Source: Schmidtea nova
Taxonomy: Eukaryota
Direction: 5' to 3'
NCBI GenBank assembly: GCA_044892505.1
Contig: CM097884.1
Location: 125,989,873-126,048,000, forward strand
Length of the DNA stretch: 58,128 nt
In this document: one piece after another, positions 21,171 to 45,400 of the stretch
Numbering within the stretch: position 1 is the first letter of the stretch
How the letters are laid out: each line of letters starts with the position of its first letter
Notes under the pieces: model-generated
Told to the model about the DNA's origin: nothing
Seen by the model: only the letters and a program-made list of their open reading frames with translations
The model's database searches: none
Program-made: the position numbers and the translations under genes

Positions 21171-21855
21171 AATTATTTTAATACCATGTTCGTTGTGTTA
21201 TATATTAAAATTTTGTTAATAATTTTAAAATTAATTTCTAGATTGACTTTTGGTAAATAAAAAATATTATATTTAAAATTTTTCTAAAATTATTTTATGA
21301 TTTCTATCGATAAATTGAATTTAACATCAATTTTGGATACCAAAAGATGGTAAAGAGTTTGTCTAAATATATAGTTCGAATGTTATGAGTGGTGTTTTTC
21401 ATTGATTAATAATTTAATAATTGTTTAATAATTTTTTTAATTGTTTGTAATATCAAATAAAAATCATAATTTTCCTTTATATCGATAAAATTATTATTGT
21501 TCCACCATTTTATTATATGAAGAAATCAATCAATAGAAAAATATTTAATTAAATTTTCATAAAAAATAACTAAATGAAAAGAAATTGTGCTCGATCAGTA
21601 ATTAAATTTAGGTTTAATTTAAATTAAATTAATTAGTTTGTACATCACAAAAAATTCATAACTGAATTTTCCTTATTAAGTTGATCGAATTGTGATCATG
21701 CGTAATATTTTATAATCATATTATAATTTAATATATGTTTATTATCATCGCATTTGAAAAACGATATATTAATTATTATAATGATATAAGAGATCGGTAA
21801 ATGACTGCGAAATAAGAGTATAATAATAAATAATATCATAATCCACTTAAAATCG

Positions 21856-21880: not shown

Positions 21881-23008
21881 TTCATCCATTATTGTGACCT
21901 TGAATTCTAACTATTTTCCTTGATACAAGTTTTGCATGCCGAAGAAATTTTTCAATTCCAAAAAGAATACCTTGACATCACTATTTGGAAGCCATTGGTG
22001 TAGTTCTTTAATAAAACTCTGAAATCCTGGTGTAATTGGCTTATTATTATATCATACCATATTTGACCTTATTACATCATACATGACATTTGACTGTTGT
22101 TACATCACACGTGACCTTTGACCACAGTTAACCTTTGGCGCTTGTGTCACCTTGACACGGTGATATGCGTACTCACTTATTCACACGCGTTCTAACTTGC
22201 GTACACATGGTAATTCATTTTCATTATCACCACTTGCTTACTAACCCACTCCCAATGTAACTCACATGTACTTATTTATTTAATAAAATACTTTTCTAAC
22301 ATCCAAACAAAACACTATCTAAATTACTTCCAAATTGCATAATCTAGAAGAGAATACAGTTAGTTTATTTTATTGATACAGAACATTCACACATATGTAT
22401 ACTTAAAGCATACAATTACAGGCATTAAATAAATTAATAAATAAGTAACAAAAAAGCTTTAGCTGCCAAAATAATTTTATAATCGAAAATTTTCTCACTT
22501 AATAAAGTTGTTTATGCAGCAAAGGCTTATTTTGTTACTAATTTATTAATTTATTTAATATTTAACGTTTATTAGTGAATACATAATCACATGTATAAAT
22601 TACAATAAAACTGTTATTAATCCTAAAAAATAAGTTAAAACTCTCATGATGCACATAGATATTGCATTTTTCAAATTTATTTTCGAATTAAATGATTTTA
22701 TCATCAAAACTTCACAATTTATACATTCATAATAATTTTAAAACCCCTGGACAATATTTTAAAATATCAATGCTATTTTTGCATGGTTTATTATGCTCAG
22801 TAATATTACTCTTCGTTTTTTTTCACGTGCATCTGAACGGTAAAACTAACAAAGAGACTTTTATTTATTTCATTACATTTATTATTATTATCAACGTCAT
22901 CATTCATCCTAATTAGAACATCATAGGTTTTAATCAAAGGAAAAGAAAGAGTGAAGAGTAATATAATACAAAAGAGCTGTAGGAATACTAAAAGCCAATT
23001 CGATTTAT

Positions 23009-23584
23009 TTAATATATATATTGAGTATTAATAGATAATTCAATTTTTAGTAGAAGGGAATCTGGACCAATGATATCGAGAGTTGATCTGTACAAACTCT
23101 GTGACTGTCTGTATAGATTGATTTCCTGTGCAGATAAATGATGCATTGAAATGGACTGACTGTGATCCAGAGAATTGATTGATAACGTTGTAAAGTTAGG
23201 CATCTCATATGGGTCCGAATTGAGGTTCATGAGAAGTCCCTTGATTGATAAACATATCTCTGTATGTACAGGTTCTTTTCGCTTTTCGACATTGAAACAT
23301 TTTCGCAATTTAGAGAACTGACAATTGCTTCTTCTTTGAATGTCAAATAAACAATAAAAACTTATGCATTCATGATGTTGAACACGGCATTTGTTTCTAT
23401 AAACTTTGCAGTCGGGTTCAGATTTTAGTTTTGACGTTTCAACATTGATATTGTTGTTGTTCAGTAAAAATGAGTAATTGTGTAGATCTTGGATAAAATG
23501 TTGTGAATTCTCAATCATGAAAAATCGGTCGATGTAAATTGAGCTGTTGACTGAAGACATCGAATCATTTGAAGTTGCTTGCAT
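23009..23584 (-). CDS. Orphan 191-aa protein with a degenerate nuclear-receptor DNA-binding-domain-like segment
   Basis: Longest gap-free ORF of the left half outside TEs, ATG in an A-rich context. DCKVYRNKCRVQHHECISFYCLFDIQRRSNCQFSKLRKCFNVEKRKEPVHTE parallels C-K-x-F-F...C..C..D..RR..CQ.CRL.KC...GM.KE.V. Confidence 0.45.
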   Translation of the reverse strand: MQATSNDSMSSVNSSIYIDRFFMIENSQHFIQDLHNYSFLLNNNNINVETSKLKSEPDCKVYRNKCRVQHHECISFYCLFDIQRRSNCQFSKLRKCFNVEKRKEPVHTEICLSIKGLLMNLNSDPYEMPNFTTLSINSLDHSQSISMHHLSAQEINLYRQSQSLYRSTLDIIGPDSLLLKIELSINTQYIY

Positions 23585-25139
23585 TTTGTTTGTGTGATAA
23601 GCGTGAATATGAAATATGTGAATATTAAAACAACGTCTATTAATTTTTTTGCTCCATTTAATAATTACTTAAATTAAATTAATTAATTTAAAAAATAAAA
23701 GAACTTTATAAAATTGAATATTTAATCTAAGGCACTACAAGAGCATAATACAAATGCAAAAAAGGCATTGATATTTCCAATTTTAAAATATTATCTAAGG
23801 ATTTTAAAACTATTATGAATGTATAAATTGTTAGGTTTTGAAGATAAAATCATTTAATTCTAAAATAAATATACAAAATGCAATATATATGTGCATTTTG
23901 AGATTTTTATCTAATTTTACTTGGATAAATAATAGTTTTTTGGATTTTGCACATGTAATTATGAGGTCACTAATAAACTTATAAAACTTATAAATTTCTG
24001 TTATTGAATTAATTTATTGTCAAAAGATGACACAGTTGTGTTGTCGAAATATGTTGCAAAAATATATGTTAACAAATAGTATTCATTTATTAATTTTTTT
24101 ATTACTCAATATTTTGAAGTAATTAATAACAATAAAAAATTTTTATTATTAATTATTATTATCCTTTAAAATAAAAATAATTCAACATTTATTGTTTGTA
24201 AGTAGCGAAGTATTATTAAAATTTAATAAAGATATAATTCCTGATCTATGAGAGCTATAATCTTAATGTTGTTCGTAAATTATGTGACTTTTTCATGAGT
24301 TACAATTAGTAAGTACTNNNNNNNNNNNNNNNNNNNNNNNNNNNNNNNNNNNNNNNNNNNNNNNNNNNNNNNNNNNNNNNNNNNNNNNNNNNNNNNNNNN
24401 NNNNNNNNNNNNNNNNNNNNNNNNNNNNNNNNNNNNNNNNNNNNNNNATATTATTTATAATGTAACATGTACTTTTGTATTGTTATTTAATTGCAATAAT
24501 TTATATTCATAAATTTATTAATTTTATTTCTTTTAGAATTGGTATCAATCGAAGAAAATAAAAAATTATCTGTAAGTTATGTTTAAATAAACGAATTTAA
24601 AGACGATTATATAAATGTATAAAACAATGAAGTCAGTAGATAGGTGTGAGCCCTTAAAAGAAAGAAAATTATTTAAAAAGACTCCCTGTCAATATCTAAT
24701 AATGAAAGGGGATGTGAACTTTAAAATATTGTAAAGAATTTAAGAACAATATATTTAAGTAACTTTAGTGTATTTTACTTTAATCTGTAATTTTATGTTT
24801 ACCAGCTTCATTGAGTTACATTGAAAATATCATAGGGTACCTCATTTTATTCGTTTTTTGTATTTGAAGGAAAAACAGTCAAGATGAAATTCAAAATGTA
24901 ACTCAATGCTGTTAATGGTGAAGAAATTCCTTCATTGGCTACAGTGAAACACTAGTTCAACGAATATAAATCCGAAAGAACCCTTAGGGTAGATCTGGAA
25001 AAGTAAGAAAAACTGGATGTCAAAACAATTTTCTCTGAGAAAGCACTGTAAAAATTTGCTTTCTTTTCTGGATACATCTTTTTCGGAATCTTTTTTTGAA
25101 TCTTCTTGGTTTCCATAGTCTTTATGGAGATGACATATT

Positions 25140-26560: not shown

Positions 26561-29500
26561 ATATAAGTAGTATATAATTTTCCGTTTTAATTAGATTTGT
26601 AGAATATAAGAAAATAAAATTATAAATTAGCATAATAAATTAAATATAAAAGTTATTAATTAGCCTGAGTGTAAATTTCATATTTAAGAATGATTGAAAA
26701 TTGAAATATAAAATATTTATTGAATGTTTGTGTATGAATATTCCCTTTTCAATTAGTAACTCGTGCTAGCAAAAATATAAAATATAATAAAGAAAATTAT
26801 TTGAATGATATAAAAAATTTGTATTGTGTTTAAAAATAGTTTTTTTAACATTATGGATGTTCTTAATTTACGAAACAAAACAAATACTAGAACCAATCTG
26901 CCAAAATTGTAATAAATCATATTTCTGCTCTGATTCTTCATTTATAGGTGGTTGTTCATGAACTAGATTTTAATTTTGTAATGTCGATAATGTCGCAAAA
27001 TGTAGCCCAGCTTATTATACTAAAAAATGGCAGCAATTTAAGGTCATGGCCTTACAGTGCTCACAAATACCCCCCCTACATCTTTGACTTGTCCCCTCAA
27101 GTAATCCATGATTTTCTTTGAAAATACCTTTTATGAGCTAACCGCGAAAAGTTTATTTGTCTTGGTTGTTATGAATAAAAAGATGTTTTGGAATTTCACC
27201 TTATTTATTATATTAGACTCCAATTATTGAGCACACCATGCATTTAAATCAGATATATTAATTATATTTTAATAAAACAATTTTTTAGGTTTTTTAAAAA
27301 TAATGTACTCGATTTTGGTATGTATGAATTGCTTTAAAGCTAAAGAAGAATATTTGAGTTAGGATCACGGAAATGTTTTTTAATACTATAAATTAAGAGG
27401 ATTTAATTTTGTGTTACTGAAATAAATATTATTTGGAAATTTAATTATGAGTTTTTATTGTACCGATTAAAATGATGTTGCAACTAACAATGACAATCAT
27501 ATTATATGTATCAACCCGTATATTTTTGCCAAATCATCTTTAATATATGAGCCATATTTTACACAATAATCAAACAAAAAATGCTGAAACATGAAAGAGA
27601 GAATAGCGTGACCTTACTGTAATGTAGACTTAACTAATTTCAAACAAATGATAATATTTGTATTTACTATTTCTGGCTTCATTTTATAAAATTTATCATC
27701 CGAATAACAAATTTTAGGATCTTTTTTTAAATATCAGTAAGATTTAAATTANNNNNNNNNNNNNNNNNNNNNNNNNNNNNNNNNNNNNNNNNNNNNNNNN
27801 NNNNNNNNNNNNNNNNNNNNNNNNNNNNNNNNNNNNNNNNNNNNNNNNNNNNNNNNNNNNNNNNNNNNNNNNNNNNNNNNNNNNNNNNNNNNNNNNNNNN
27901 NNNNNNNNNNNNNNNNNNNNNNNNNNNNNNNNNNNNNNNNNNNNNNNNNNNNNNNNGATGACTATAGATCAAAATTTTTTTTTAAACAATAAAAAAAAAT
28001 TGATCTATAGTCATCATTATGAGAATTATTGATAATAATAATAAAAAAAGATCNNNNNNNNNNNNNNNNNNNNNNNNNNNNNNNNNNNNNNNNNNNNNNN
28101 NNNNNNNNNNNNNNNNNNNNNNNNNNNNNNNNNNNNNNNNNNNNNNNNNNNNNNNNNNNNNNNNNNNNNNNNNNNNNNNNNNNNNNNNNNNNNNNNNNNN
28201 NNNNNNNNNNNNNNNNNNNNNNNNNNNNNNNNNNNNNNNNNNNNNNNNNNNNNNNNNNNNNNNNNNNNNNNNNNNNNNNNNNNNNNNNNNNNNNNNNNNN
28301 NNNNNNNNNNNNNNNNNNNNNNNNNTAATTAGAGAAAAATTAAGTCATTATTTTTCATTTAGAAAACTAAATTCAATGATTCCAACCCCTCCACGCAGCA
28401 ATCTCAAAGCAGTTTCACAAGTCTTCATTTTGACAAACGGTCAGAATCCATTTCCCAGAATAAAAACAATCCTCAAATTCAAGAAAACTGAAAAGCTAAA
28501 AATATAAATAAATTATTCCAAACCATTTTATTTATCTTTATCAATTTACACTACAATCATTCGTTTATTTGTAATAATAATTTATTATGCTAATAATGAA
28601 TGTAACATCATAGATGATAAATATTTAATATTATTTTCTTTTGTTAATATTGTGTTGTTTTATATTTATGAATTGCAAATATATTTTGTAGAAGTTATTA
28701 TGATTTTATATAACTATTTTTTAACATAAAAAGAAATTTGCATAATTATTTTTAATTGTGAAATCTTAAAAATAATAAAGTACCGTTTATTTTGAAAATG
28801 AGACAAGTCCATTTGATTATCTTTAATTTTCTTAAGACATTTTTAAACTACATTTTGTATAACTGCAAAACACACAAAAGCTGGCTACATTAAGGTCGAT
28901 GTTTGTTTGAACTTTTAATGAGCTTTTTAAAGGTTATCACGAAGGTTATCAACTTCAGGACGTTAATCGCCATGGATGTTCCAAGTTACTGCTATCAATA
29001 GGTTAGAAATCTTTCTATTCACTAGACGTGTTAAGCAATAATTGTAATCTTGCTCGGAACTAGATTCGAAAGACTTGATCCTTGATCTTAAGGGAAAAAA
29101 TTGTAGAGGTCAAGGTTATATTAAAAGGTTTTAACAAAAGTCGATTATTAATTTTTATTTTATGTTCTCTATTTTGTTGCTGACCCCATATCATATATAT
29201 TCAAGCTAAATACAAAATTTTTCAAATAATTCAGCCTTGAAATCTCTCTGTCGTGTTCCATTGGTAACTATCCTAGGCACTGCAATAATGGTACATGCTC
29301 GGTCACACTAATAATTTTATTAAAAGAAATCATCAAGTGTCAATAAATTCGTTAGGAAAAATTGCAAATGTTATTTTATAGTTTAAATGAAGCCAACAGA
29401 TAATATTGCTGGGTTCATGGACGGGTTGGTAAAGAGGCTAATGATGGCTAGGGATCTCCCATCCATGATCATGCATAAAATGTCGTAAGTTACACTCGAG

Positions 29501-29841
29501 CGCCCTTGATTATTTCCCTTGATAACCAAGTTGGTGATGCGCAGGGTGATTAAACAATGAGGGGCATGTGAGCACTATTGCTAGGACTACTCCCCCTTTA
29601 TGTTTACGGGTTCACGCGGCCGTGGAAGGACTTACGCAATTATTGTTCTATTGTGTGTGTGATGTCATGTAATTATCAAAAACAAAATTTAAGCACAACG
29701 AAACTACTAATACGATAATACTTAAGCTACTCCTTTCGTTGTGTGACGGGTAATTTAAATTTAATTAAATGAATTAGGTAATTGAAGGAAAACATCAGAA
29801 ATAACAACAACAAAACAAAACGAGTAAAAATTTAATTGAGT

Positions 29842-30449
29842 TCAAATTCTGACATCGTATTTTATTTGTAATATAAATTCTTTGAATATTCCTTCAGGAG
29901 GGAACATCTCTGCTAACCACTCGGCTTCCGACATTTCTGCCATCGTGGTTACTTGTGTCCGCAATTGCTGGGAAAACAGCTTCCTTTGGCGACGGCGCTT
30001 GGAGCCGATTCGTTTTCGCTTATTCGGTTTTCCGGCGGGAGTTGGTGCAGTGGTGGTTTCCCCCCGACTCTGCGTCGTTGTTGCCTCGAGTCCATCGGTG
30101 TCTGTACTGATTGAGCAGGCCACTTTCCGTTCTCCTACCCAATTCTGGTAAGTAATGGGTCGGATTTGTGCTTTTAATTCGGACTCGATAAACGAAGTCG
30201 TCACCGAATGGAGGCATCGGCGCAACTCAATTTTTGTTGCTTCCCATTCGGTGCGATAATCGTCAGCTGTCCTTTGAGCCCTTTCTGTCCGACTCATCTG
30301 CTCCTTCATGCGAGCTGGTGCGAACCAGCTGGTCCGTAAATGCTGAATCTGAGCTTCTGCTTTGGCTCGTAAGGCTTTTTCTTGGTTTAGCTCCTTTTCC
30401 AATGCTCGGCGGGTTCTCCACGCCTTGTCCAATTCTCGCTGTTGGCTAG
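29842..30449 (-). CDS. LTR-encoded ORF B, 3' LTR copy: coiled-coil plus basic R/K-rich segment; likely start MTETSQQ
   Basis: ORF track 29842-30537. The internal ATG at 30449 follows ttgttatttag|T. KPNKRKRIGSKRRRQRK is NLS/RNA-binding-like. The protein is identical in both LTRs. Confidence 0.55.
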
Positions 30450-30651
30450 TTTCCGTCATACTAAATAACAAACCCAATTTATAATGCATCAAACATGTTA
30501 CCAAGATTAATATTATCCGTCGAAGGTAAAAAATCACATGATTAAATAAATAGAAATAATTTTAACTAAGGAAAATCAAAAAAAAAAAACACGGATCAAC
30601 ACCATTTAATTTATTGAAATCATTTAGTTTATAAAAATGTGAATATAATGT

Positions 30652-31152
30652 TTAGTGGAAAACACTTCGCTTGAGGCCGTGAACGGGAGTAATATGCAAC
30701 CCGTGATTGACTGGATTTCTTCGGATGTGAGCCATCGAACAGTTTAGTTTGGGGCGTCCATGGCACGTTTTCGGTAGGTGATTCGGAATCAATCCGAATT
30801 TAAGCAACTTGAGCGGTGAGACATATCCCCAATAGATCACTGTCGTTGGATTTCCTTCGCTGTCTGACACCACTATGACGAACAGAGCTGTCGTCTCCCG
30901 GTCTCTTTCGTCCTGAATTTCCCATCCGGGGCCTCCTCGATATACGATGGTATCCAATCCCCCGGTCCAAATTGAGAATGGACATTTCTTTCCTAGTTCC
31001 CACCGCCATTTATACATCAACGCATTTAGCGTTCTGAGGAGTTCCTGTGGGAGCGACTTCAATTTCTGCTGTTGCGTCCGGATTAGAGGATTTTCGACCC
31101 GTGCCGCCTGACGTTGAGTTGTTAGAAATTTATCCAGTATCGTTGCTTTCAT
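30652..31152 (-). CDS. LTR-encoded ORF A, 3' LTR copy: 166-aa unknown protein
   Basis: Open 166-codon frame with higher GC than its flanks; the ATG directly follows tttttttttatcag|. Confidence 0.5.
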   Translation of the reverse strand: MKATILDKFLTTQRQAARVENPLIRTQQQKLKSLPQELLRTLNALMYKWRWELGKKCPFSIWTGGLDTIVYRGGPGWEIQDERDRETTALFVIVVSDSEGNPTTVIYWGYVSPLKLLKFGLIPNHLPKTCHGRPKLNCSMAHIRRNPVNHGLHITPVHGLKRSVFH

Positions 31153-32033
31153 CTGATAAAAAAAAATATAATGCTAATAAATTTTATTGTGACGAATCCG
31201 TAAATTTTGGTGGGACCTGATAAAAATGCTCTGCTCGTTGATCAATAACACAAAAAAATGTGAAAAGGAGGAATAAAAAAAATATTTTCCAAACTAGTCA
31301 ATTAACACCGTCGCTATGTACAGCGATCGGAATATTAAAATTTTACATATTGTTACCTGCGCTATGTACAGCGATCAGGTTACGATTTTACTTGTTTAAT
31401 CCGTAATGTCGATCCGAACATGTCGTTATTTATGTCTAAATTAAACCATAGTTGAAACATCGAAATCGTCTCGGTGTGTCCGGACATTATTTCGATTAGT
31501 TATGTTGATTCACAAAAATTCGCGTGTAGATGGAAAAAAAAATCGATCTAGTCGACCTGATAATTGATATTGTAGTTTGTTTTCGCCTATCTGATCGAAT
31601 ATTAATGTTAACCACTGTCTACAAAGTGTCCTTGTCCCTGCACAACTTTACCGTACCGTGAAACTTTCAAAACCAAAAATTTAAATCAAATAAAGAATAC
31701 CCATAAAAACTCTGCTCACCATCTTGTGGAACGGTGAAATCCCACATTTACGGCGTACTCCCTCGCAGCGTGAGCTACTGAGGAAGTGAATATATATGCA
31801 TAAGTAAAATAAATGAAATAATAAAATCATCAGAATCATTTACGATAAGTTATATTAAATAAAATCATAGGATCAATAAAACTTATAATGACAATCAAAA
31901 TAATTACTTCCACAGGTTTTCCAGATAGCTTTGAATAAATCGTAAAATAAACGCTTTCACAAAGTTCGTGAATTAATGTTTCTAGACAAAGTCTGTCGAC
32001 AAAATTAGTGTTGTGTTGTTATTTTCGGATCGG

Positions 32034-32075
32034 TATTTATACTGATCCAGTTGGTCAGATTGACCAATCAGGATC
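32034..32075 (-). promoter_or_regulatory. Candidate LTR core promoter: palindromic CCAAT element followed by a TATA box
   Basis: Near-palindrome GATCCAGTTGGTCAGATTGACCAATCAGGATC (32044-32075), then TATAAATA on the minus strand at 32041-32034. An Inr-like CTAATTT lies near 32006. Confidence 0.5.
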
Positions 32076-32636
32076 AGGCCGTCCATCAAAGTAATTTTGT
32101 TATTTTATTTTAATATAAACCATTTTAAATTTCCGGTTCAGATTTCTCGCTGGGTGGTCTCGATTTTTTCAAGTAATTAACCAATTAATTGTACTTTTAT
32201 TTGATTTTATTTATAATTTTCTTATTTCAGACCCCCATACTGCTCGTTCCCGTGTCAATTTGATTTTCTTCCTTTGCTGGAAATTTAGTAATTATTATTT
32301 ATTATTTTATTTTAATTTTTAATTTAGGTTTTTCGAATGTTTTTGTGGTTATTATTTGTATCTATTGTTTGAATTAATACAATATCTTTGCCTTTTTAGA
32401 CCAATTGGTGGGCCCAACATCACTCGGGGACCCCTAAAATTGCGTCCCGCAATTAATTATACATAACTACTTATAACATCATACATAAAAAGTTTTACAG
32501 ATATATACATAAACACAAGAAAATCACTTAAGGTGATAGAATTTATACACATCATGAGATTTGTTATAGGATAGTTGAATATTATCAGATTATTGTCATA
32601 GGATAGTCAAAGGTTCATCAGAGATGTTCACAAAGT

Positions 32637-33197
32637 CTATTCGATCCTCCGGCTCGCATTGGGTTGGGTTTGAGTTCTCTCATTGATTGTAGCTAATTCG
32701 TAGTGGGTCTGAATTTGATCTAGATGTTTTCTCATACGTCTTTGGGTTCGGTTGTCTCGCCTTGATGTTTGATTGACGATGGTTTGTTTCTGTTTGAGGA
32801 TTTTTATCCGGTAGGAGGCGATCAGGATTGTGATTGCGATGGTAGTTATGCTGATTGAAAGGATTATGATGATTGCTATGATCCATTTTTCTTGATATTC
32901 TATTTCAGCTTGGGCTAGGCTTTTTATGGGCTCTCTACCTTCTTTCAGGGTTTTTTGGGTTTCTTTTAGTTTCAGTTGTTGGTTATCGAAGATTTGTTGG
33001 ATTTGATGATCTTGATTGTGGGGATATTTCTGTCGGAATTCGTTGATTTCTTTAATTACTTCTTCGATTAGGCTGTCTACTTTTTGGTAGGTTTTGTCGG
33101 GTAGAACTCGTAATTGGGTTTCGGTAAGTTGTAGATCTTCTCTCTGTAGGGTGATGGTTATTAACCATAGGAGTATTGGTATTGCGAGCTTTCTCAT
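32637..33197 (-). CDS. Accessory 186-aa type I membrane protein (signal peptide, helical ectodomain, TM, basic tail)
   Basis: N-terminal MRKLAIPILLWLITITL; TM WIIAIIIILSISITTIAITILIASY; A-rich codon use like the rest of the element. Confidence 0.75.
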   Translation of the reverse strand: MRKLAIPILLWLITITLQREDLQLTETQLRVLPDKTYQKVDSLIEEVIKEINEFRQKYPHNQDHQIQQIFDNQQLKLKETQKTLKEGREPIKSLAQAEIEYQEKWIIAIIIILSISITTIAITILIASYRIKILKQKQTIVNQTSRRDNRTQRRMRKHLDQIQTHYELATINERTQTQPNASRRIE

Positions 33198-33275
33198 TTC
33201 TATCTTTACATAGGAGTCAATACAGCTTGACGCTTTTTATTTTACATCATCTATTTACAATTGGTTTCCGCTCAT

Positions 33276-34337
33276 TTACACGAGGGTTTCGTTAGGTTCG
33301 TGAAAACCTTCGTCTTGAGGTTCCACCTGATTTATGGGGAGTGGCATCCATATTACCGTACTCCTCCACATTTCCACTTCCTCTCGGTATGTGTGGGATA
33401 TCTGAATCTCTTCATCTAATAAGTATTCCAGATAGTTCGCCTGCTCTGTTAGGGTTTCTATTTGTTTTTCTAGTTCTGCTAATTTTTTCTCTCTCTCTTC
33501 TTTCTCTATCATTTCGGTCACTGCTGCTGTGATACTTGTTTCCTTTGTGGGTACTGGTTTTTCTGTTAGCTTCTTTCTCAGTTCTTCGTTTTCTTTTGTC
33601 AAGTTGGTTATGTTCTCTTCATAACTCTGTTTTGCTTCTTCCATTCTTTCTTTGGTCCTTTTTAATTCTATTTTCTTCTGGGTAATCACTCCTTGATATC
33701 CATTTATATCTCTTTTCATGTTTTCCTCCTTGTGATTCCACATTCCGGTCAGCATACCTTTTAACTGTTCTTGATTGGCTAACTCCTCTCCCATTCTTTG
33801 CACTTGATAAGTTAGTTCTTTAATTTTCTTGGCTTGTTCTCTGATGAATTGTTGTCTTTTCTTACTCCATACCTTATTTGACGCTTCTTGACTGATCTTT
33901 TGCCCTAATTCCTCTTTTAATTCGTCGATCTCTTTAAACAGTTTCCAATCATCGCTGTACGCTGTTCGTTCAATTATCTCCCTGGCTTCCTTGTAAGAGT
34001 CTTTTGCCTCTTTCTTCCAATATCTTGCTTGTTCGGTGATTGACTGAATCTTATGGTCTGTTTTTATCTGTTGTCTATCTCTATCCTCTCGTCGCTCTTT
34101 CATCATCCCTTTGTAGTATTCGTTTTGTTGTCTTAGCAGTTTGTAGACTTCTTCTATTTTTTCTCGACTTTTATGATTCGTTTTCTCGGCTTCTCTTAGT
34201 GCTTGGGTTTGTCTTTCTAATTCCTCCTGTTTTCGATAATAGGCGTGAATCCATATCCCAATCCGCTCCATGTGATTTCTGATCATTTCGTCTTGATGTA
34301 CGGTTACTTCCTGTAAGGTTACCTCTATATTTCCCAT
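33276..34337 (-). CDS. Accessory 353-aa coiled-coil protein, function unknown
   Basis: Long E/K/Q/R heptad-like ORF in the element's sense orientation; no recognisable family motif. Confidence 0.8.
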   Translation of the reverse strand: MGNIEVTLQEVTVHQDEMIRNHMERIGIWIHAYYRKQEELERQTQALREAEKTNHKSREKIEEVYKLLRQQNEYYKGMMKERREDRDRQQIKTDHKIQSITEQARYWKKEAKDSYKEAREIIERTAYSDDWKLFKEIDELKEELGQKISQEASNKVWSKKRQQFIREQAKKIKELTYQVQRMGEELANQEQLKGMLTGMWNHKEENMKRDINGYQGVITQKKIELKRTKERMEEAKQSYEENITNLTKENEELRKKLTEKPVPTKETSITAAVTEMIEKEEREKKLAELEKQIETLTEQANYLEYLLDEEIQISHTYREEVEMWRSTVIWMPLPINQVEPQDEGFHEPNETLV

Positions 34338-34448
34338 TTCTATAATTACAGATAAAAGAATATTTAATCAGTTTTTATTTTTATTGTTTTTGATTATTTG
34401 TTATTTCATATTGTTTTATACAGTTTATTTACATGGTTACTTTCTTCA

Positions 34449-35825
34449 TTACGCCAACCATCCTTTTCTGTCTGTTTTCTCGTGCCTCTCCATCTCTATG
34501 TATAGCGTGTCTGCATACAGTTGCTCCCATAGGTTTTCTTTCCTTATAAACATTGGTTCTCCTGCTGCTAGTCCGCATTCTGTTGTTGGTTTTTCGCTTG
34601 TACTCGTATGTTTGTCTGTTTCAAAGAACTTTTCTACTGGTTTTCCTATACTTTTGATTCTTATAATGACTCCTACTTTCAAGGGCCATTCTATTAGGTC
34701 ATCGTATTCTCCTTTACATAACGAGAAGAATATTGATACGTGTGTTCCTTGTCCTCTCCCGTCTCCATTTGGGTAGACCTTCAATCTTATTTTAACCCCA
34801 TTTTTCCATAAATAAAATGGTGGGCTTATTACTGCTGTTTTCGTCATATTTCTGGCTTCTGCTAGTTTGTCTCTGAAATCTGTTACTTTCCATAGGTAAG
34901 GTGCGATTGGTAAGTCCCTTCTTTCGTCAATTTCTCGTATTAATTGATTATATTGTATTTTCATTCCTTTTCCTAATTCTTCTATGGCTATTATTTTCTT
35001 TTCCATTCTTTCGCGAGTTAGTTCAAACTGCTCTCTTGTTTCTAGTAGTAAACTCATCATTATCTTATGTGATTCTACTTCTTTTTCTAATTTCTGGATT
35101 GTCTGTTCTGTTTCTTTTGTCGTTTCGTTTGTCATTTCCACATGCGTTAGTGCTGCTTCTTCCAAGTGTTGTTTCATTGTTTTTCGCGTCCGCTTTTCCT
35201 TGCATCCATGCTTGTTATATGGACATTCTCTTGGCCTTTCGGTGCATATTTTCCAATGTTCATGTAACTTTATTTCTTCTGTTATTTCGCAATTGTTTGG
35301 ACATTTGCTTACATATTGTCCGCATACTTTCTCCTCTGTTATATTTAAGTGTTCTTCTTCGATTTTTCTCCTTGTTTCTCGAGTTTCACAATACTCGCAT
35401 GCGATTTCTTCTTCTTTACATTCTTCCTTGTGTTGTTTTCTCTTCTTTAGAGTTATTGTCTGTTGGCATTTCTCGCATTCGGCTCTCTTTTCCTCGCATT
35501 TTTCCATATGGTTTTCCAGATTACTTATTTGTCCTTGCCATGTACAAGGTGTATTTACGCACTCCGTTGTGGTGCTCATAATTTCTCTTTGGGTTGCTTT
35601 GTCCATTCTGGTTTCATCCAACACTATTTTTCCTTCCTTACATTCTGGGCATGTTGTTATTCCTGTTGCATCTAATTCTTGTATACATTTTGTACATATT
35701 CTACATCCACATATCGTTTGTCTGGGTTCTCGCAATAAATTATTACATTTTCCGCATGTGAGCCTCTTGCTCCATTTTCTGTTTTCTAATCTCAAGATTT
35801 CGATTATTCGTTCTTCTCTGTCCAT
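34449..35825 (-). CDS. TRAF: Full-length TRAF-family protein (RING, TRAF zinc fingers, coiled coil, MATH)
   Basis: RING CGKC...CGCRICTKC...CPEC; fingers such as CVNTPCTW...HMEKC and CPYNKHGC...H; MATH signature SPPFY...KIRLKVYPNGDGRGQGTHVSIFF...GEYDDLIEWP. Confidence 0.93.
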   Translation of the reverse strand: MDREERIIEILRLENRKWSKRLTCGKCNNLLREPRQTICGCRICTKCIQELDATGITTCPECKEGKIVLDETRMDKATQREIMSTTTECVNTPCTWQGQISNLENHMEKCEEKRAECEKCQQTITLKKRKQHKEECKEEEIACEYCETRETRRKIEEEHLNITEEKVCGQYVSKCPNNCEITEEIKLHEHWKICTERPRECPYNKHGCKEKRTRKTMKQHLEEAALTHVEMTNETTKETEQTIQKLEKEVESHKIMMSLLLETREQFELTRERMEKKIIAIEELGKGMKIQYNQLIREIDERRDLPIAPYLWKVTDFRDKLAEARNMTKTAVISPPFYLWKNGVKIRLKVYPNGDGRGQGTHVSIFFSLCKGEYDDLIEWPLKVGVIIRIKSIGKPVEKFFETDKHTSTSEKPTTECGLAAGEPMFIRKENLWEQLYADTLYIEMERHEKTDRKGWLA

Positions 35826-35919
35826 TTTCTACAATAATATATACATTCGACTTGTCATTTATTTTTGGATTTTTTCTTGTTTTTATTTTTACATATTTAC
35901 AGTTTTCCGCTTTATTTAT

Positions 35920-36276
35920 CTATGGCTCATTCGTTGAATCTGGTTCCGCTTCGTTGTTTAATCTATTTATTACCCAACTCATCCATCCTTCTTCGGATCC
36001 TTCTCTTTCTCCTCGTGTTAAATGGTTTATTTCTATTGCTTGTCTTTGATTGGTGTTGCTTATCGTTTGATTTTCCCTGGTGAGTTCAGTTATCGCTCTT
36101 TGTTGTTCCTCTATTCTGTGTAATTGTTCGAAACAATTGTTATAACTTTCTGATAGTAACATTTGTTTTTCCGCTAATTGGTTCTGTAATGAGTTGACTG
36201 TTCGTACTAATAAATCGCATTGTGCTTTCCATCTCATAGCCATAGTTATTTCGGTTGTTTCGTCCTGTTCGGTCAT
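35920..36276 (-). CDS. Accessory 118-aa coiled-coil protein
   Basis: First ORF after the polyprotein; heptad-like Q/E/L pattern; same TAG-AAA-ATG start context as its neighbours. Confidence 0.65.
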   Translation of the reverse strand: MTEQDETTEITMAMRWKAQCDLLVRTVNSLQNQLAEKQMLLSESYNNCFEQLHRIEEQQRAITELTRENQTISNTNQRQAIEINHLTRGEREGSEEGWMSWVINRLNNEAEPDSTNEP

Positions 36277-36402
36277 TTTCTAAATTATATACATTATTTA
36301 CTTTGCTTTTCTATCTTTTTACAATTTTTTATAATATCGATACCCATACTATTACGGTAATGCTTTGTTATTTACACTATTATTTACAGTCATAATCCGC
36401 CC

Positions 36403-39400
36403 CTATACCATCATTATCGTCTTTTCTTCGTATCGTTCTTCCTCTTCTATTTGTTTCCAGAATTCTTTACCTTTCGTTCTTCTTTGAAATTCTTTCTGTA
36501 TCTCCTCTGGTATTTCTATTCCTAGTTTCATGATTTTAATATCTGGCCATTGTATGGCTGTCGCTTTGTTTCTCTTTCTGTATCTCCAATATACTATTAT
36601 GCTTGTCGTCAGTATTCCATATGCTATTAATATTCCTATACTCATTAATCCTATTATTGTTTTTCCACTGTTTGTTTCTCTTTTATTCTGGTTCGCTTTT
36701 ATCTCATTTTGGGTTTGAGCCTCTGGCTTCTTCTCTTTCGGTATTTGACTCTTGACTTTGTTCATTACTTCTTGGGTAGACCAATGGTGGTTTAGTAGTT
36801 GTTTGACGTCATTTTTCGTCGTCTGGTTTTCTACGCCTCCTGGTTCGGTCTGTTGTGATAGTTTCTCTGAGATCTGATATAATCCGCATTCTGGTTTTTC
36901 TGAACCTTTTCTGGTGAAGGTACATATCGCGTATGTCCTATTTACTTCCATTTTCTTTAATTCGACTTTTTCTTTATTCTTTATTTCTTTACAGTGGGTT
37001 AGGTTGTCTTCTTCTACTTCTGGTTTATGTTTTGTCCAACATATTACTTTAACTGTCTGATCGAGTCCTGTTAATGTCAGAGTTCTTTCTGTTTTAGTTA
37101 GTTCTTCTTCATCGAATTTCAGAGTTTCTCCTTTTTGGAATGTCTTGCAATTTTCTATTCCGGGTTGATCTTCTTGGGTTCCTTTCTCCCATATACATAT
37201 ACTTCCTTCTTCATTCATTTGTATTTCTTGTATTTCGATTTCCTTGTTTGTTCGTGATTCGTCGCTTGTCTGAACTTGGTATTCTCTTGGTTCGTTGTAC
37301 CATACCCAGCATATTTTGTTACTTTGGTTTTTTCTCCTTATTGTCATAGCCATTTGTTCTATTCTTATTCCTTTATCGATACGTTTGGACATTGCTATTA
37401 TTAATGCTATGCATACGAAATCTTGTTGGGGTGATACTTCTTCTCTCGTGTTATTTGTGCTTCTCTCCCCTTCTCCTGGTTTGTCCGTTGTGTTTTTCAT
37501 CTGAGTTGCTGGTTGATCTATTGTGTTTTTGATTTCTTTCTTTGTTGGTTTTACTCTATACCATTCAAGTCTAGGCGTTTCATATTTTTGGCATACGACT
37601 GTCTTAGGTAGCCCCGACTTCTTTTCCTTTTCTATTATGCATATCCGATGCATGGTCCCTCCATCCATTTCTTCTATTCGTATTATATCCTGGTCGGATT
37701 TTCGGATTATGCATTTTAGTGGGTTATTTTCTCCAATTGGTTCATCTTCTCTATACCAACATATTTTCTCGACTTCCTGGACATTTATTATTTTTATCCC
37801 TGTCTGTGGGTTTATTGCTTCTTCCCCATTGATTAATGTCAATATTATTGTTAGACCCAACCATTTTGAACTCTGCGGTAGGCTTCTGGTTCGCCTTTCA
37901 TATTTTTTCTCTTCTCCTTTAATCTCTTTTATTTCCTTGTCTTTGTTGTTCATTCCTAGTTTTGCGATTTTTGCTTCTTTCTTATTCCTGGTCGGTTTTG
38001 GTTCTTCTCGTGCGTTTTCTTCCAGTATTTCAACTCCATGGCTTGTATTGTATATATTTGGCCATTGGGTTGCCGATTTCCTTGGGTTTATCTTGCGTAT
38101 CCATATAGCTGATAACGCGATTATTACGGGTATGGTCGCTGTTAATATTCCTAAGCCAATTAATTCTTTGATTTGTTTATTCTCGTCTGTTTGTATAGAT
38201 TTGCTTTGGTTGAACATTATTCCGTATTGTCCTTTTAGTTTTCTCATTAATTGTTCTCGTTCCTCTTGCTTTCTTTTGACTTCTTTGATAACTTCTTCGG
38301 GTGTCCATTTTGCTTGAGGGTCGATTATTATTTTTTCTGCGTCCATTTGTTCATTCGTTTGGCTTAGTTCCCTGAATTCGAGTTTCCTTGTTATTCCTTT
38401 TGATGTCGCGTTTACTGGTGTATAGTAGGTTTCGCATCTTTCTTGTTGGTTTCTTAGTGCGTCCATTATTTCTATTGCGCATACTTCGTACTCGCTATTA
38501 AATTGTAGTTTTTCGATCTTGATTTCTTTATTTGTTTTTCTGCATTCTCTTGATTGTCTTCTTATATGTTTCTGTACTATTATCCAACATATTTCTAATG
38601 TTTTATTCTCTATTTTCCATAATGTTAGAGTTGCTGATGTTTTTCTCTCGGGTTTCGTCGTAACTTCTTGGTTTGTTGGTTGTTTATTGTTTTTAAAGGT
38701 AGTGGTGTACTTCGGTTTTCCTTTGTTTCGTTGTTTCCTTTTATTTTTCCGTGTTAACGTTTTGGTTCTTGTTCCGGATGACGTTGTATATATTCCGCAT
38801 TCTAGGTCGTTTATCGTTATCTGATCATTTTTCTTTACCAAACATATTTCGTAGGTTTGTTTACTTTCTAAACCTTTTATTTGAATCGTCGTTGTTCCTG
38901 TGTTTGTTCGACATTGTGGTGTCGTTCTTTTATTTACTTCTTTTTCGTACTTCCTCCAGCATACTCCTTTCACATTTGGTTCTATCTCTTTTATTTCTAA
39001 TGTTATGTTTACTTTCCGCTTGATTTGTTTATTTCTCTTCCTCGTTCTCCTTCTGAACTTTATTACCTCTCCAGGTTGAAATGTTTTACATTTTGTGGTA
39101 CCTTTCTTGTTCGTTTCTTTTTCTAGTAGGCATAGTTTGTACGTCTTATCTGCTTTTACTTCGGATATTTTAATTACTTTATTCGTTGTTGGTTTTCGAC
39201 TTTTCCTTATTTCGTTTACGCCGATTTCCTCGTTATTTCTCGCCCAACATTTTATGTTAGTATTCTGTGTATCTTCTACTTCTGTTATTGTCATAGTTTC
39301 AATTTCTATCCCTTCCTCTAATCGTTTTATCATTATTAGTATGAGTGCTAAACATAATACTTCCATTTGGTAGGACACTCTTTCGGTTTCGTTTGTGGCA

Positions 39401-42400
39401 ACTCTTGCTTCAGGCCTCTCTATTGTAATTCGTAGGGTTGGTGTTGTTTGCTTATCTGTTGCCTGGGGTTTTTTGTTTTCTGTTCCCTGTGTCTCTGTCC
39501 TTCCACATTTTCCGATGATGTAATCTCCTTTGGGTGACTGTTGTATTGTCATGGCTGCTTTAGGTGTTTGGTATTTTGCACATGCGATTGTGTTGTGTGA
39601 TCTTGGATGCTTTTGTTTTCTAACGGTGCATATTTTGTACCAGGTATTTAGATCCAGGTCGTTGATCTCTATGATTTCTTGCTCGTGTTTTGAGATTCTG
39701 CAATCCATCGGGCTATTTTGTTCCGTGATTTTGTCCTTTTTTGACCAACATACTCGTTCGATTCCTTTTGCGTTTTTTATTTGTATTATTGCCCTTTCTT
39801 CACATGTCATTCCTTGACTTGGATTAATTAACGTTATAATCATTGTTAGTAATAGTAATTCTGGTTTGAAGAATGGTTTTATGGTTGATTTATAACCTGT
39901 TCTTTGGGTGTCATTTTTATCTCCTTGGTCGTTTGTTCCTTGTTCTCTCTCTTCATCTCTTTGTTTTTCTTCTTCACCTTTCTTTTCTTCCTTGTCTCGT
40001 TTCTTGTCTTTTCTCTCGTTTTCCTCTTTATCGGGTGGTTCGTGATCGCTTGAATTTTCTGAGTTGTTACCGTCGTCACTATCTGTGTTGTCATCTCCCC
40101 CTGGCTCGTCGAAAATGTCGTCCTCGACATTGATTTCTTCTATCAATTTTGCGTATGCTAATGTCGTTAGATTACTTGCCTCAAATTCTTGTGTTTCTAT
40201 CTGCTCCGGTATTATTTTGTTAGTGGATTTATATTCTAAGATTTCCCTTTTGGCCTTGATCCAATTGTTGATGTATGTCTTCATTAATTCTTTCCATTTG
40301 CCTGTGTATTTTCCCTCTCTCGGGTTGTTTGTGACTCTTAGATCCTTTCTTTCCATAAACATCTTCAATATCTCTGGCCATTTATATGTTATTAGGGCAC
40401 TTCTTATACACCAGTTTTGGTTATGTTCTGTAAACTCATTAATCTTGAATGCTGGTTCGTTGGTATTCGGATTTATCCACGTAAGTATTGATTCTGTTAG
40501 TTCGACGTTGTTCATCATTGCTAGTACACTGGGTTTCCTGACCGTATCAGTTAGGTAATCTATTTCTTCCTGATTTGAGATTGTTTTAATGAAGTTGACC
40601 ATTTCCCAATTATGTGTTAGTAATGCTACATCCAAAATTGAATTATCTTTATCTGTCTTTCCTGTAAGTCCTGCACCTGCTTTGTATAGTTCTTTTAATA
40701 CCTTTGTTTTCGTTTTGGCCCTTGCTGCAAATACCATAAGTGTATCTCCTTTCTCGTCTACCATATTCATATTGCTTCCGCAATTTAGCATTACTCTTGC
40801 AATTTCCATTACTTTTCTATCTTTGCCATTTCGTAGAGCTCTGTGTATGGGCATTATTCCGTCCTTTGGTAGTAAAAATGTTACTGGCATCTCCTTTTTT
40901 ATAGTTGTTATGTCGTTACCATTGTATGTTCCTTTTGCGTATGCGTGTACTTTTTCAACTAATGCACCGAGTATTTCCAGTGCATGTTTACTATTCTCAA
41001 ATTCCGGTAACAATTCTTTTGCTTTTTCTTGTATCGCATCTAGTCTAGCTTGGTATGGTGCTTCTGCTTTGAAGAGTGGTGTGAGTTTCTTGTTGCTTTC
41101 TCTTTCTTTTTTCTCTAAAACCTGTTTGCATTTTTCGGGATGGTTTAAAATTTTTACTAATTCCTCATATTCGCTTACTATTGTCTGGTATTTCTCGTTA
41201 AAATTGTTTATGTCTTTGTATGTTATTAGTTTGTCAAGTGGTTTCGCACACCATTTCCTAATCTTGTTGAATAAGGCTTCCTTCTCTTTATCGAATTTGT
41301 ATTCTTCTTCATTCTTTGTGATGTTTATGTTTCCTCTATCTAATAAGGTTAGTAATGTCTTCTGATCACAAGTAAATTTCAAAAGGTATCTTAACAGTGC
41401 GTTTTGTCCTTCGCTGTATACTTCGTTTATGTCTAAGACCCATGTATCATCTTCTGGTCGTTTCCATTTGATTAACTTACGGATCGTGTTGCATTTACCA
41501 ATTTTGATGGCCTCTTTGATAATGTCTCCTTTAACTAGTTCGTCTATCTCCCAAGTGGAGTTAGCTATTATGTATTTCAGCATTGGTTGGTGAGAACTCC
41601 ATATTACGTGATTTAGCACTGTTTTATCTTCTCTATCTCGTTCTGTCCAACTGAAACGGGCTTTTATCAGCAGATCTACCATTTCTTTATCCGCTTGGTA
41701 GATTGCTGCTGTCATTAATGGAGTTTCTTGTTCACGATTCCCCACGTCCAAGTTTTGGTTTGTTTCCTTTGCGATTTTTAGGAATTCTTTTGCTCTTTCA
41801 ATGTTTTTACACTGAATCGCATTATGTAAGGCTGGTTGTCCTCCTACATCTTTTAATAAGAGTATTTCAGGGATTTTTATCAATAATTCAGAAATAATTG
41901 GTTCGGTTGGTAATCCTTGTGCGTAACGGCTAATTATGTGTCTAATGTCCCTTGATATGCCTGCTTCGTCTCTAACATGCCATCTTCCCATTATCTCTCT
42001 CGCCTTCAATAGGATTTCTTTATTTCTGATTTCTTTTTGCCTTATTTCTGTTTTGTCGTCTTCGCTGGTGTTTGCTCTGAGCATGTTTATCCTGGCTGTT
42101 TGTGATCTGGTTATTATTCGATTCTCTGGTGTTGTAGTTATCGTTTTAGGCACCTTCTTACATCTGCAGGTGTTTACATATATGGGTCGTATTAACGGTC
42201 GATTTATTAGCTTAACTTTGACATTGTTGTCCTTTTTGTATATAATTTCATAAGGTCCTCTTCCAGGTCTTTGGAGTTTCTTAACAGTTCCTGGTATTAT
42301 TTCGGGAGTTTCTATTATCACCCAATCTCCTGGTTTTAGGTCGTTCGCTTTAACATTTTTCTTCTGGTCGTGTAAATCCTTATAACTTTCCTGATAAAAT

Positions 42401-45400
42401 TTAATGTTGAGTTCTGCCGTTTTCCATATTTCCTGCATCCTTTCTTTGAATTTGGTTACGTAGTCGTCGTCTTCCATATATTGCGATAATGGTGGCTGGT
42501 ACTCCAAATCTATGGGCATGTTGCATTCTCTGCCATACATAAGTTGAAACGGGCTTAGTTTTGTTGCGGCATGTATCGACATTCGGTATGCCATTAAACA
42601 TAATTTTATGTATTCATCCCAGTCAGTTTGGTGTCTGCTGACGTAATTTGATAACATTCTAATCAATGTGCCGTTGAATCGCTCCGTTTGTCCATTCGTT
42701 TGCGGGTGATATGGTGAAGTTCTCAATTTCGCTATTCTGAAATAGTTCGTCACCTCGTTTAATAACTCACTCATAAAATTAGTTCCTTGGTCTGTGAGTA
42801 TTTGTTTTGGAGTTCCATATCTGCAGCATATTTCTTCCACTAGAATTTTTGCTACGGTTTTTGCTTTTTGATCTTGCATGGCAAATGCTTCCGGGAATTT
42901 CGTCAGGTAATCCGTTATTACCAGTATGTAAATGTTTCCGTTTAAGCTTTCTGGTAATGGTCCTATTACGTCCATTGCTATAGTTGTCATTGGCTCTGCT
43001 GGTATCGGCATTGGTTGTAGCGGGTTCTTCCATTTCTTCCCACTATCCTTTCTAGTTGCGCAAGTTAGACAATTTTTAATCCATTCTTTTATATCTTCTT
43101 CCATTGTTCGCCAATAATATTTTTGTCTCATCCGATTTATTGTCTTTTTCTCTGACATATGACCTCCTAATTTCCCATCATGGTACTGGATCATTATCTC
43201 TTTCCTTCTGTTTTCCGGTAAACACATCAATCTCTTTTCTCCGTTTTGTATTAACAACCATCCTTTATTTATTATGTAGCGATGTTGATATTTTCCTATA
43301 TGTTCCTTTAGTTCCTTATTATCCTTGAATACCTCCATGTTTCGAGATGTTAGGAACTCTATGATCTGTCCCAATTCTTTGTCTTCCTGTTGATCTTTCT
43401 TTAACTCACTAAAGTCCAAATCTTCCGCTATTAACACACAAATTCGTTGTACATCAGGATCGGTTAATTCCGGAAATGTCAGTCTTGACATACAATCTGC
43501 ATTCGCATTCGCTTTTCCTGATTTAAATTTTATGTCCGGTGAGTACTCCTGTAACTGCATTGCCCATCGCATTAATCTACTGGATGTTTCCTTATGTTGT
43601 CCTAACCACACAAGCGGTTGGTGATCTGTGGTTATACAGATGATGTGTCCCCATAATAAATATTTAAAGTGTTTAATTGCTAGTATAATTGCTAACGCTT
43701 CTCGCTCGGTTACTGAGTAATTTTTCTCATGCTTTTTGAATGTCCGGCTATAATATCCGATTACACGTTCTTTTCCTTCATCGTCGTATTGTCCTAATAC
43801 TGCTCCTGCTGCATATCCGCTTGCATCCGTTGCAAGTAGGAATGGCTTCTTGAAGTCTGGGTGTACCAATATGGGTGCGGTTATCAGTTTATCTCTCAAT
43901 GTTTCAAAGGCTGTTTGCTGTTCATCTCCCCATATGAATGATACATCTTTCTTTACCAGCTCCTGTATAGGTTTTGCAATTCCGGCGTAATCTTTTATAA
44001 ACTTTCTATAATATCCACATAATCCAAGAAATTCTTGTATCTGGGTTATTGTTTTTGGTACTGGACATTCCTTTACTTTGTCGATATTTCTAGGATCCGG
44101 TTCTTTTCCTTTTGCTGACACTATATGTCCTAAAAATGTTACTTTCTCTTTCGCCCAATCACACTTGGATGGCTTGAGTTTTAACTTCCATTGTCTAAGT
44201 CTAACGAATACATCTCGAATATCCTGTATGTGTTGTTCAAACGTGCTAGAGTAGATTAATAAGTCGTCGATGTAGACCATACACTGCTTTATTCCATGGG
44301 TGACAAAATTCATGCATCTCTGAAATGATGCTGGTGCGTTTGTTAATCCAAAGGGCATCTTTCGAAATTGATATAGGTCTCTACCGATGGTAAAGGCAGT
44401 TTTCTCTTTATCTTCTTCCTTCATTTTTATTTGCCAGTATCCGCTTTTCAGATCTAGTGATGTAAAATATGCTGCTCCCTGTAATGTTAGTAGCATTTCG
44501 TTGATGTCTGGTAATGGGTAAGTATCTCGTTTTGTCACTGTATTCAATCTTCGATAATCTATGCAGAATCTCTGTGTTCCGTCTTTCTTCTTTACCATTA
44601 CTACTGGAAATTGCCAGGGTGAACAACTTGGTTCGATTACTTCTGCATCCAACATTTTCTTCACTTCTGCTTCTGCTACTGCTTTCTGTGCTTCCGCTAA
44701 TTTGTACGGCCTTAATGCAATTGGTGTTTCATCTGTTAATGGTATTGTATGTAGTGTGACATCACATGTTCCTAGATCCAAATCGGATGCTGCAAATATA
44801 TCCTTATACTCTATCAGGAGTTTTTCTAGCTGCTTCCTTTGATCCTCATTTAATAATTCACTGTCGATATTCCAGGTTGGTTCTTTATCTTTCTCTGCCC
44901 CTGCTATTGGTAGTTCGATATCCATCATTGGGGTTAATTTACCTAATCTTTCGTTTTCGTAGATTATTTTATCCTCTTCGTCGAAATTTACCACGTTTAT
45001 TGGGATTTCTCCATTATCATTTATGTTGACTAATCCTCTTGCCATTGGCAACGCTTTTCTTTTCTCGAATCTCTTACTTGGTTCGAAAATCATATCGCCT
45101 TGGATTGTCGGATCTATTTTTACGTAACATATTTTTTCCTTTCTTGCCGGTATTATCATTTGCTTTGAACTTGTCACTTTGGCTTCTATTGCGCATATTT
45201 GTCCTGTGCGATCCTTTAGTCTCATTGTTCCGAGGTCGATTACAATCTCTTTAAATAGTGCTGGCATCAAATCTGTTCCGATAATGCAAGGTACGCTTAA
45301 TGCTGGTATGACAGCTACGTACGTATCGATTTCCGTATTTAAGTGGCGTATTTTTACCCACCATCTTCCTGCTACTTCCACAACTTCTTTGCTACATGCA

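Follow-up and report, generated by a model that had tools for sequence, protein, structure and literature searches.

Spacers of the accessory gene cassette in a Burro-like giant retrotransposon of Schmidtea nova and their splicing record in genomic copies

The window analysed here is the whole stretch of 58,128 nucleotides (nt) from Schmidtea nova (assembly GCA_044892505.1, contig CM097884.1, positions 125,989,873 to 126,048,000 of the forward strand). On its minus strand it harbours a long terminal repeat (LTR) retrotransposon of 29.1 kb, bounded by LTRs of 3013 bp and a 4-bp target duplication, ATAT. Its architecture follows the one described for Burro and places it among the Burro-like giant gypsy retrotransposons, a kind already known. 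Downstream of its polyprotein frame lies a cassette of four accessory open reading frames (ORFs), designated A1 to A4, whose spacers are the subject of this report. Genomic copies record that the splice acceptors just ahead of A1 and A3, and donors located behind stop codons, have been used in cis. Positions are those of the window, and all features of the element lie on the minus strand.

The cassette and its spacers

The first ORF, A1 (118 amino acids (aa), 35920–36276), matches no family above the cut-off and shares 32% identity with the gene that opens the cassette in a distant relative, family B. It is followed by A2 (458 aa, 34449–35825), which is TRAF-like, with zf-TRAF and MATH domains detected in a Pfam scan; by A3 (353 aa, 33276–34337), coiled-coil-like, with 27% identity to one of the family B cassette genes; and by A4 (186 aa, 32637–33197), which displays two hydrophobic stretches and no Pfam match. 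A sequence-only reading of this region had described four co-oriented ORFs with spacers of 126, 94, 111 and 78 nt, and re-measurement returned the same values. The start contexts are also as it had reported: TTTAG/AAA-ATG at 36276, TTGTAG/AAA-ATG at 35825, TTATAG/AA-ATG at 34337 and GATAG/AA-ATG at 33197, the slash marking here and below a proven or putative splice boundary. Two ORFs inside the LTR share the pattern of an AG before the ATG, as had been noticed, in the forms TATCAG/ATG (31152) and TTTAG/T-ATG (30459, the second ATG of its ORF).

A YAG trinucleotide 0–3 nt ahead of all four cassette ATGs has a joint probability of 1e-4 in base shuffles and 4e-6 in dinucleotide shuffles. The word TAGAA(A) precedes none of the 145 internal methionine codons of the polyprotein and four of the 531 ATGs of the internal region. 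The distance from AG to ATG is 0, 1, 2 or 3 nt, a variation that fits a non-coding leader.

The strongest signal in the spacers had escaped the earlier reading and is located just past the upstream stop codon. There the motif TGTAHATA begins at +15 to +19 in all four window spacers (per-spacer shuffle p 0.001–0.007); its presence inside the first 35 nt of all four has a joint p of 4e-9 to 3e-7, and it does not occur once in 18.2 kb of coding sequence. The spacer between polyprotein and A1 (36277–36402) contains T/GTAAATA with its GT at 36387, a second copy at +27 and the acceptor AG at 36281–36280. The A1–A2 spacer (35826–35919), which is conserved, has T/GTAAATA with its GT at 35900 and a candidate acceptor AG at 35830–35829. 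Within the A2–A3 spacer lies a GT-AG intron of 93 nt (34340–34432); it opens with the post-stop GTAAAT and closes with the AG that lies 2 nt ahead of the A3 ATG. The A3–A4 spacer (33198–33275) combines an invariant T/GTAAATA (GT at 33258) with a conserved CTGTATTGAC block, a possible branch site, and with a putative TAG acceptor at 33201–33200. Conservation was assessed at 84 loci, 68–83 of which span each spacer. The post-stop motif is invariant over these copies, unlike the variable spacer middles; the last 12–18 nt of the first three spacers are likewise invariant except for the A-run before the ATG, and the end of the fourth varies.

Family B (L041–L043, G000:C3 at ∼47.915–47.936 Mb, and relatives; 3873 first-look candidates) carries TRAF, BIR and RING cargo, and its cassette proteins are 27–37% identical to A1–A3. 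TGTAHATA stands at +15 to +18 past the stop in five of its seven spacers (per-spacer p in the range given above), and six of the seven end in YAG 1–5 nt before the ATG, the seventh doing so 17 nt before. Taking the two distant families together, TGTA(A/T)ATA starts 15–19 nt past the upstream stop in 9 of 11 spacers. As motif and YAG are laid out alike in families of such low protein identity, the architecture is older than the sequence.

Family B is itself apparently non-autonomous, being Burro-like and devoid of reverse transcriptase and integrase, with up to seven cassette genes that include TRAF and BIR-RING. One of its branches has lost a stretch of 3076 nt that held both TRAF and BIR-RING.

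Genomic copies made from spliced RNA

Four independent events preserved in genomic copies removed exactly GT...AG: one in the A2–A3 spacer, two, seen in three copies, in the matching family B spacer, and one between a donor in the polyprotein and A1. Copy L083, found among 16 diverged copies chosen by their A4 context, lacks exactly 34432–34340, a loss that starts with the post-stop GTAAAT and ends with the AG ahead of A3. The joint allows a single possible split and shows no microhomology, and the remaining layout is stop, 18 nt, ATG. Among 36 scored family B copies, L098 has lost 105 nt, beginning with the post-stop GTAAAG and ending with the AG that sits 1 nt ahead of the A3-like ATG; in L099 the loss begins at that donor too and covers 128 nt, reaching a cryptic AG 23 nt beyond the first, and L100 shows the loss of L099 with one letter changed at the joint. 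The fourth event came from a search for the A1 start behind foreign upstream sequence, which gave one match, L067–L069. This copy, with a whole 3' LTR and a 5'-truncated 5' LTR, lacks exactly 39896–36280, from GTTATA to the TTTAG of the A1 acceptor, with three equivalent splits since the AG is shared. Its donor, CAG/GTTATA (39891–39896), lies inside the polyprotein and is probably cryptic. These copies show cis use of the acceptors of A1 and A3 and of the post-stop donors, on RNA that subsequently went through reverse transcription and integration.

In an untargeted hand count of deletion events of at least 40 nt, 3 of 23 were exact GT-AG losses, as against 0.26 expected (Poisson p 0.002). All three begin at the post-stop motif; the other 20 mostly show microhomology. 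The count takes shared events once (the 3076-nt loss, present in 12 rows; L100 with L099), omits a 41–43-nt tandem duplication near 55200 (nine rows) and the targeted copy L067–L069, and includes three joints that are poorly resolved (identity 0.65–0.69).

Further searches for spliced copies used exact sequence patterns. The A2 start gave 12 matches compared with 16 for the control; all 12 were retrieved and none lay within the cassette of the element. The A3 start gave none, the exact matching having missed L083 as well, and no spliced copy emerged from the A4 start. A search with the polyprotein donor returned 29 matches, of which only the copy already known was spliced; the first-spacer donor returned none, the second-spacer donor 38 with none spliced, and the exon-2 donor none. 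No skip from a post-stop donor to a non-adjacent acceptor was found. Four listed sequence runs of unknown kind, in contig form, covered spacers and genes alike; among the rows displayed, no joint or loose end fell at the four AGs and none at 39896–36280, and these runs are not used as evidence.

The spliced genomic copies settle the spacers as introns and give exact joints to seek in planarian RNA data. As a general method, retrotransposed copies can be read as a fossil record of the splicing of an element.

Leader splicing and its alternatives

A source for the 5' end of each message is suggested by the LTR. Its promoter has a TATA box, GTATAAATA (32034–32042 in the 3' LTR copy), present in the 33 LTR copies shown. 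Placing the start site from this box predicts an ATG-free leader of ∼105 nt (31907–32014) that ends at the donor GGAA/GTAATT. The donor had been proposed from the sequence and is in place, with its GT at 31907 and the working copy at 58026 in the 5' LTR. Three LTR types (window LTR, second subfamily, family B) have a GTAAT/GTAAG donor 126, 128 and 125 nt past the TATA box, respectively, and in each the leader contains no ATG (p about 0.12 each); between the window LTR and the family B LTR there is no sequence likeness beyond AT-rich noise. Of 68 LTR copies, 53 have the leader donor and one has an ATG inside the leader. The LTR donor is thus a well-supported candidate for the end of a constant ATG-free leader.

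Two ORFs interpose between promoter and gag: L1 (30652–31152), with a T-rich putative acceptor directly ahead of its ATG, and L2 (29842–30459 from its second ATG), preceded by TTTAG/T. Because these ORFs lie inside the LTR, some skipping is needed for every downstream gene. A candidate gag acceptor, TTTGTATTTTAG (53405–53416), occurs in 16 of 16 copies, and the 526 nt from it to the gag ATG are free of any ATG (shuffle p 0.0003). Within this interval an open frame of 465 nt (52879–53343) runs in frame into gag without an ATG; it measures 465–591 nt in 17 other copies, the differences being multiples of 3. The frame suggests an N-terminal extension that starts at a codon other than AUG or in an unseen exon. 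A possible start at an ATG-GGA located 616 nt ahead of gag was discarded for lack of conservation.

We consider it likely that the accessory genes are separated by short spliceosomal introns whose AG lies 2–3 nt before the ATG, shown to work in cis for A1 and A3, and that each messenger RNA (mRNA) arises by alternative cis-splicing of one ATG-free LTR leader. Two features expected of such expression are present: acceptors that work in cis (A1, A3) and, at the sequence level, a non-coding leader with a major donor near the LTR start site. Transcription would proceed from the LTR promoter, and the leader would be joined to one acceptor per message, out of a ladder of acceptors, with the first ATG 0–3 nt past the joint. 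Weak donors would leave most of the genomic RNA unspliced, to be kept as genome. Each ORF would in effect be an exon, with an acceptor immediately ahead of the start codon and, 16–20 nt past the stop, a weak donor; the acceptors of A2 and A4 would presumably be employed in the same manner. On the 3' side of each gene, the spacer introns may be removed to yield nested 3'-coterminal mRNAs, the message may jump to a last exon, or it may end in the spacer.

A bolder form of this scheme, which we hold as rather doubtful, takes each cargo gene as a whole cassette exon, with an acceptor 0–5 nt before the ATG and a donor 16–20 nt after the stop, picked singly between the constant LTR leader and a constant 3' end, the donor being near enough to the stop to escape nonsense-mediated decay. 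With a donor at that distance past the stop, the junction complex would sit on the final part of the ORF and be cleared by translation, which fits this form. If true, the cassette would be a plug-in array of one gene per exon, in which host-derived genes (TRAF, IAP) could be added, dropped or reordered by being flanked with a common spacer.

Several observations weigh against leader splicing or narrow its reach. The earlier proposal that the AGs are splice acceptors and not just a Kozak context is upheld for A1 and A3 by the exact GT-AG losses; A2 and A4 have no such fossil. No spliced copy was found for the A1–A2 or A3–A4 spacer, nor from the first donor of the polyprotein–A1 spacer, and 40 more family A loci and 20 more family B loci yielded no further GT-AG loss. 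The spliced copies say nothing on the frequency of such splicing, nor that it is the purpose of the sites. With one probably cryptic donor and one cryptic acceptor among four events, the fossils may be accidents of strong acceptors. The TAG acceptor of A4 is confined to the window subfamily, most relatives having AAG/GAG and no pyrimidine tract. Outside that subfamily the A4 start gave 116 matches, and of the 100 listed, 98 are purine-rich before the ATG (AAAAGAG, AAAAGAA, GGAAGAG etc.) and two apparently unrelated; the A4 acceptor is weak and unproven. The RING-finger ORF between the 5' LTR and gag (54685–55188) has no AG ahead of its ATG in 13 of 15 copies and an AG in two. Every post-stop donor has T at −1, a poor context given the donor consensus AG/GT, and the motif matches the Pumilio element, UGUAHAUA, so that it is perhaps kept for another reason. 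The leader donor was not seen within the scanned interval in 15 of the 68 LTR copies. Finally, genomic DNA searches revealed no element-derived joint of leader to ORF: the leader-donor search gave two matches for subfamily 1, both unrelated, with a pattern unable to catch a join to L1, and none for subfamily 2. As such a joint removes the primer site, the element cannot copy it, and its absence from DNA says little.

The main competitor for the 3' side of the genes retains leader splicing and takes TGTAHATA as primarily a protein site of Pumilio/PUF type in the 3' untranslated region, or a 3'-end signal; messages would end in the spacers and donor use would be incidental. This reading, which changes only the 3' half of the preferred explanation and is partly compatible with it, is possible, although we do not expect it to prevail. 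It would account for the T at −1, for a second TGTA 8–13 nt later, for the UGUAHAUA match, for a site just beyond the terminating ribosome, and for the fact that the donor used in family B is the second TGTA and not the perfect 8-mer. It is opposed by three independent events in which the motif served as donor and by spacers that, unlike the sequence after the LTR ORFs, possess no U- or GU-rich downstream element. The variant in which TGTA is a cleavage signal, as distinct from PUF binding, is further weakened by observations on Schmidtea mediterranea, whose poly(A) sites are without upstream UGUA and in which CFIm59/68 was undetected (PMC5068929). A cleavage signal of CFIm type is therefore unlikely, and a PUF site may coexist with the donor.

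The sequence-only reading had also invoked an operon analogy, in which cleavage and polyadenylation take place in each spacer of a long RNA and a host spliced leader (SL) is trans-spliced to each AG; the cis-spliced copies would then be leakage. Planarians do have SL trans-splicing (PMC12582326, PMC10899757), spacers of 78–126 nt fit the operon spacing of less than 300 nt used in a flatworm study, and in that study acceptors often serve both cis and trans, with an average of 66% of SL acceptors doing so (PMC12582326). Cis removal of an intron of 20–25 kb, from LTR to cassette, is moreover demanding. Several observations nevertheless speak against the analogy, and we judge it unlikely. AATAAA is present in the second to fourth spacers and absent from the first, as had been stated, at a frequency that is at chance level for such A-rich spacers (per-spacer p 0.23–0.86). 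An operon would be expected to have outron-like spacers free of a usable donor, whereas each spacer here keeps a conserved post-stop donor-like motif of the kind shown to splice in cis. In flatworms the operon-resolving acceptors are the class most protected from cis-splicing, other SL acceptors being commonly cis-spliced (PMC12582326), and this protection, set against a conserved and used spacer donor, argues against an operon. Flatworm SLs end in AUG (PMC12582326), and this AUG, if joined, would immediately precede A3, A4 and L2 in the wrong frame, and would be in frame for A1, A2 and L1. The element, finally, has an ATG-free leader and donor of its own. SL trans-splicing at the four AGs is accordingly disfavoured, and occasional SL addition is possible. 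An element-encoded SL-like exon (CCTCAG/...CAAGATG/GTGAGC, 31777–31720, ending in ATG, with an Sm-like word downstream) was rejected as a general device: the Sm-like word recurs in one of 14 other copies, and the second LTR subfamily has neither the acceptor nor the donor.

Two further alternatives dispense with separate leader-spliced messages. Were the spacer introns simply removed, one polycistronic mRNA with stop-to-start linkers of 18–30 nt could be translated by reinitiation. The RNA form would be exactly as the copies record (stop, 18 nt, ATG in L083), but ribosomes that have translated a long ORF reinitiate poorly unless special elements help them, and the acceptors before L1 and gag and the ATG-free leader are left unexplained, which makes this very unlikely. 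That each spacer is a mini-promoter, with TAGAAAATG merely an AT-rich start context, strikes us as more improbable still. The Tor elements of Oikopleura have internal env promoters (PMC4402516), TGTATATAA looks like a TATA box, and the A4 context is without a good acceptor. The TATA-like word, however, lies 8–20 nt from the ATG, too near for a start site upstream of that ATG, and the A1 and A3 AGs are shown as acceptors; the reading could still hold for A4.

The element and comparable systems

In its remaining parts the element conforms to the Burro pattern: it is LTR-bounded, ∼30 kb long and flanked by a target duplication, and has gag, an env-like region and protease, reverse transcriptase, RNase H and integrase in a polyprotein of ∼5000 aa with ankyrin repeats. 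Its cargo, among TRAF/MATH, BIR or RING, comprises TRAF and RING. Burro elements are, to our knowledge, the largest LTR retrotransposons, and carry regulators of apoptosis and ubiquitin. In the window copy the polyprotein frame (4953 aa, 36403–51264) encodes, according to the Pfam scan, a fusion glycoprotein-like region, protease, reverse transcriptase, RNase H, integrase and ankyrin repeats, and the gag-like ORF (51328–52878) contains CCHC knuckles. An in-frame stop at 51328–51330 splits the two in this copy; all 13 other copies matched there form one continuous frame. The C-terminal 1160 aa of the polyprotein (36403–39896) contain repeated modules whose hydrophobic stretches look like signal or membrane sequences, and gave no Pfam match; they are exactly what copy L067–L069 lost by splicing.

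The 3' LTR (29407–32419; 3013 bp, TG...CA) is 99.8% identical to the 5' LTR (55527–58128), which extends 410 bp beyond the window end, leaving its own TATA box outside. A few bases past the 5' LTR stands a primer-binding-site-like GGGGGCTCAGCCGGGAT (55502–55521), which presumably resembles tRNA-Pro sites. The RING-finger ORF lacks its ATG in some copies and is preceded, in the window subfamily, by a 42-nt duplication; between it and gag is a 32-nt tandem repeat of variable copy number (53907–54098). Two LTR subfamilies can be distinguished (30150–32015; L018–L031, L056–L064) that have the promoter end and the far end in common and differ in the ∼1.7 kb between; both have the same internal region and keep two ORFs with AG before ATG. 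A GC-rich exon-like block of 58 nt (31720–31777), CAG/...ATG/GTGAGC, is conserved in subfamily 1; subfamily 2 retains the first 20 nt of the block without the splice sites, which hints at an RNA element.

Scoring of 40 out of 676 candidates puts the number of close cassette copies in the genome at 40 or more. At G000:C1, 590.84–590.94 Mb, four element copies lie ∼33 kb apart, three of them equal in score, in a tandem array or an assembly repeat. On the host side of the window, inverted-repeat units of ∼1.0–1.4 kb (16325–17587, 20152–21182 and 22561–23985) are probably non-autonomous DNA transposons.

Complex retroviruses such as HIV-1 and foamy viruses employ one major 5' donor and a ladder of acceptors. 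They share with the element a constant non-coding LTR leader, weak sites and unspliced RNA kept as genome; they differ in that every complete ORF of the element lies between an acceptor and a post-stop donor of its own, the ORFs do not overlap, and two more lie inside the LTR. The adenovirus major late unit likewise joins a constant leader onto alternative acceptors, possibly with several poly(A) sites; it belongs to a DNA virus, and poly(A) sites in the window spacers are unsupported above chance. The nearest known counterparts are Burro and GYPSM1, giant gypsy-like LTR elements of dugesiid planarians that agree in their ∼29 kb, long LTRs, ∼5000-aa polyprotein with ankyrin repeats and an env-like region between gag and pol, TRAF/MATH, BIR and RING cargo and accessory ORFs (PMC6431247). 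In the window element TRAF belongs instead to the downstream cassette, and the available portion of that account describes no spacer introns backed by fossil copies for Burro (PMC6431247). No account of Burro accessory-gene expression, with 7–10 separate genes from one promoter, was found in the literature consulted; Grohme et al. 2018 or its supplements may describe Burro transcripts. Cer1 of Caenorhabditis elegans (PMC10309623) and Tor3a of Oikopleura (PMC4402516) are LTR elements of SL-using animals that obtain an extra protein from cis-spliced RNA, in Cer1 with the acceptor ahead of the initiator ATG; each makes one spliced product, in contrast to the array of four to seven genes, plus LTR genes, seen here. 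The SL-resolved operons of flatworms and nematodes resemble the cassette in having co-oriented genes, spaced by ∼100 nt, whose starts are each preceded by an acceptor (PMC12582326), and the cassette departs from them in having a conserved, used cis donor in the spacer and a leader of its own.

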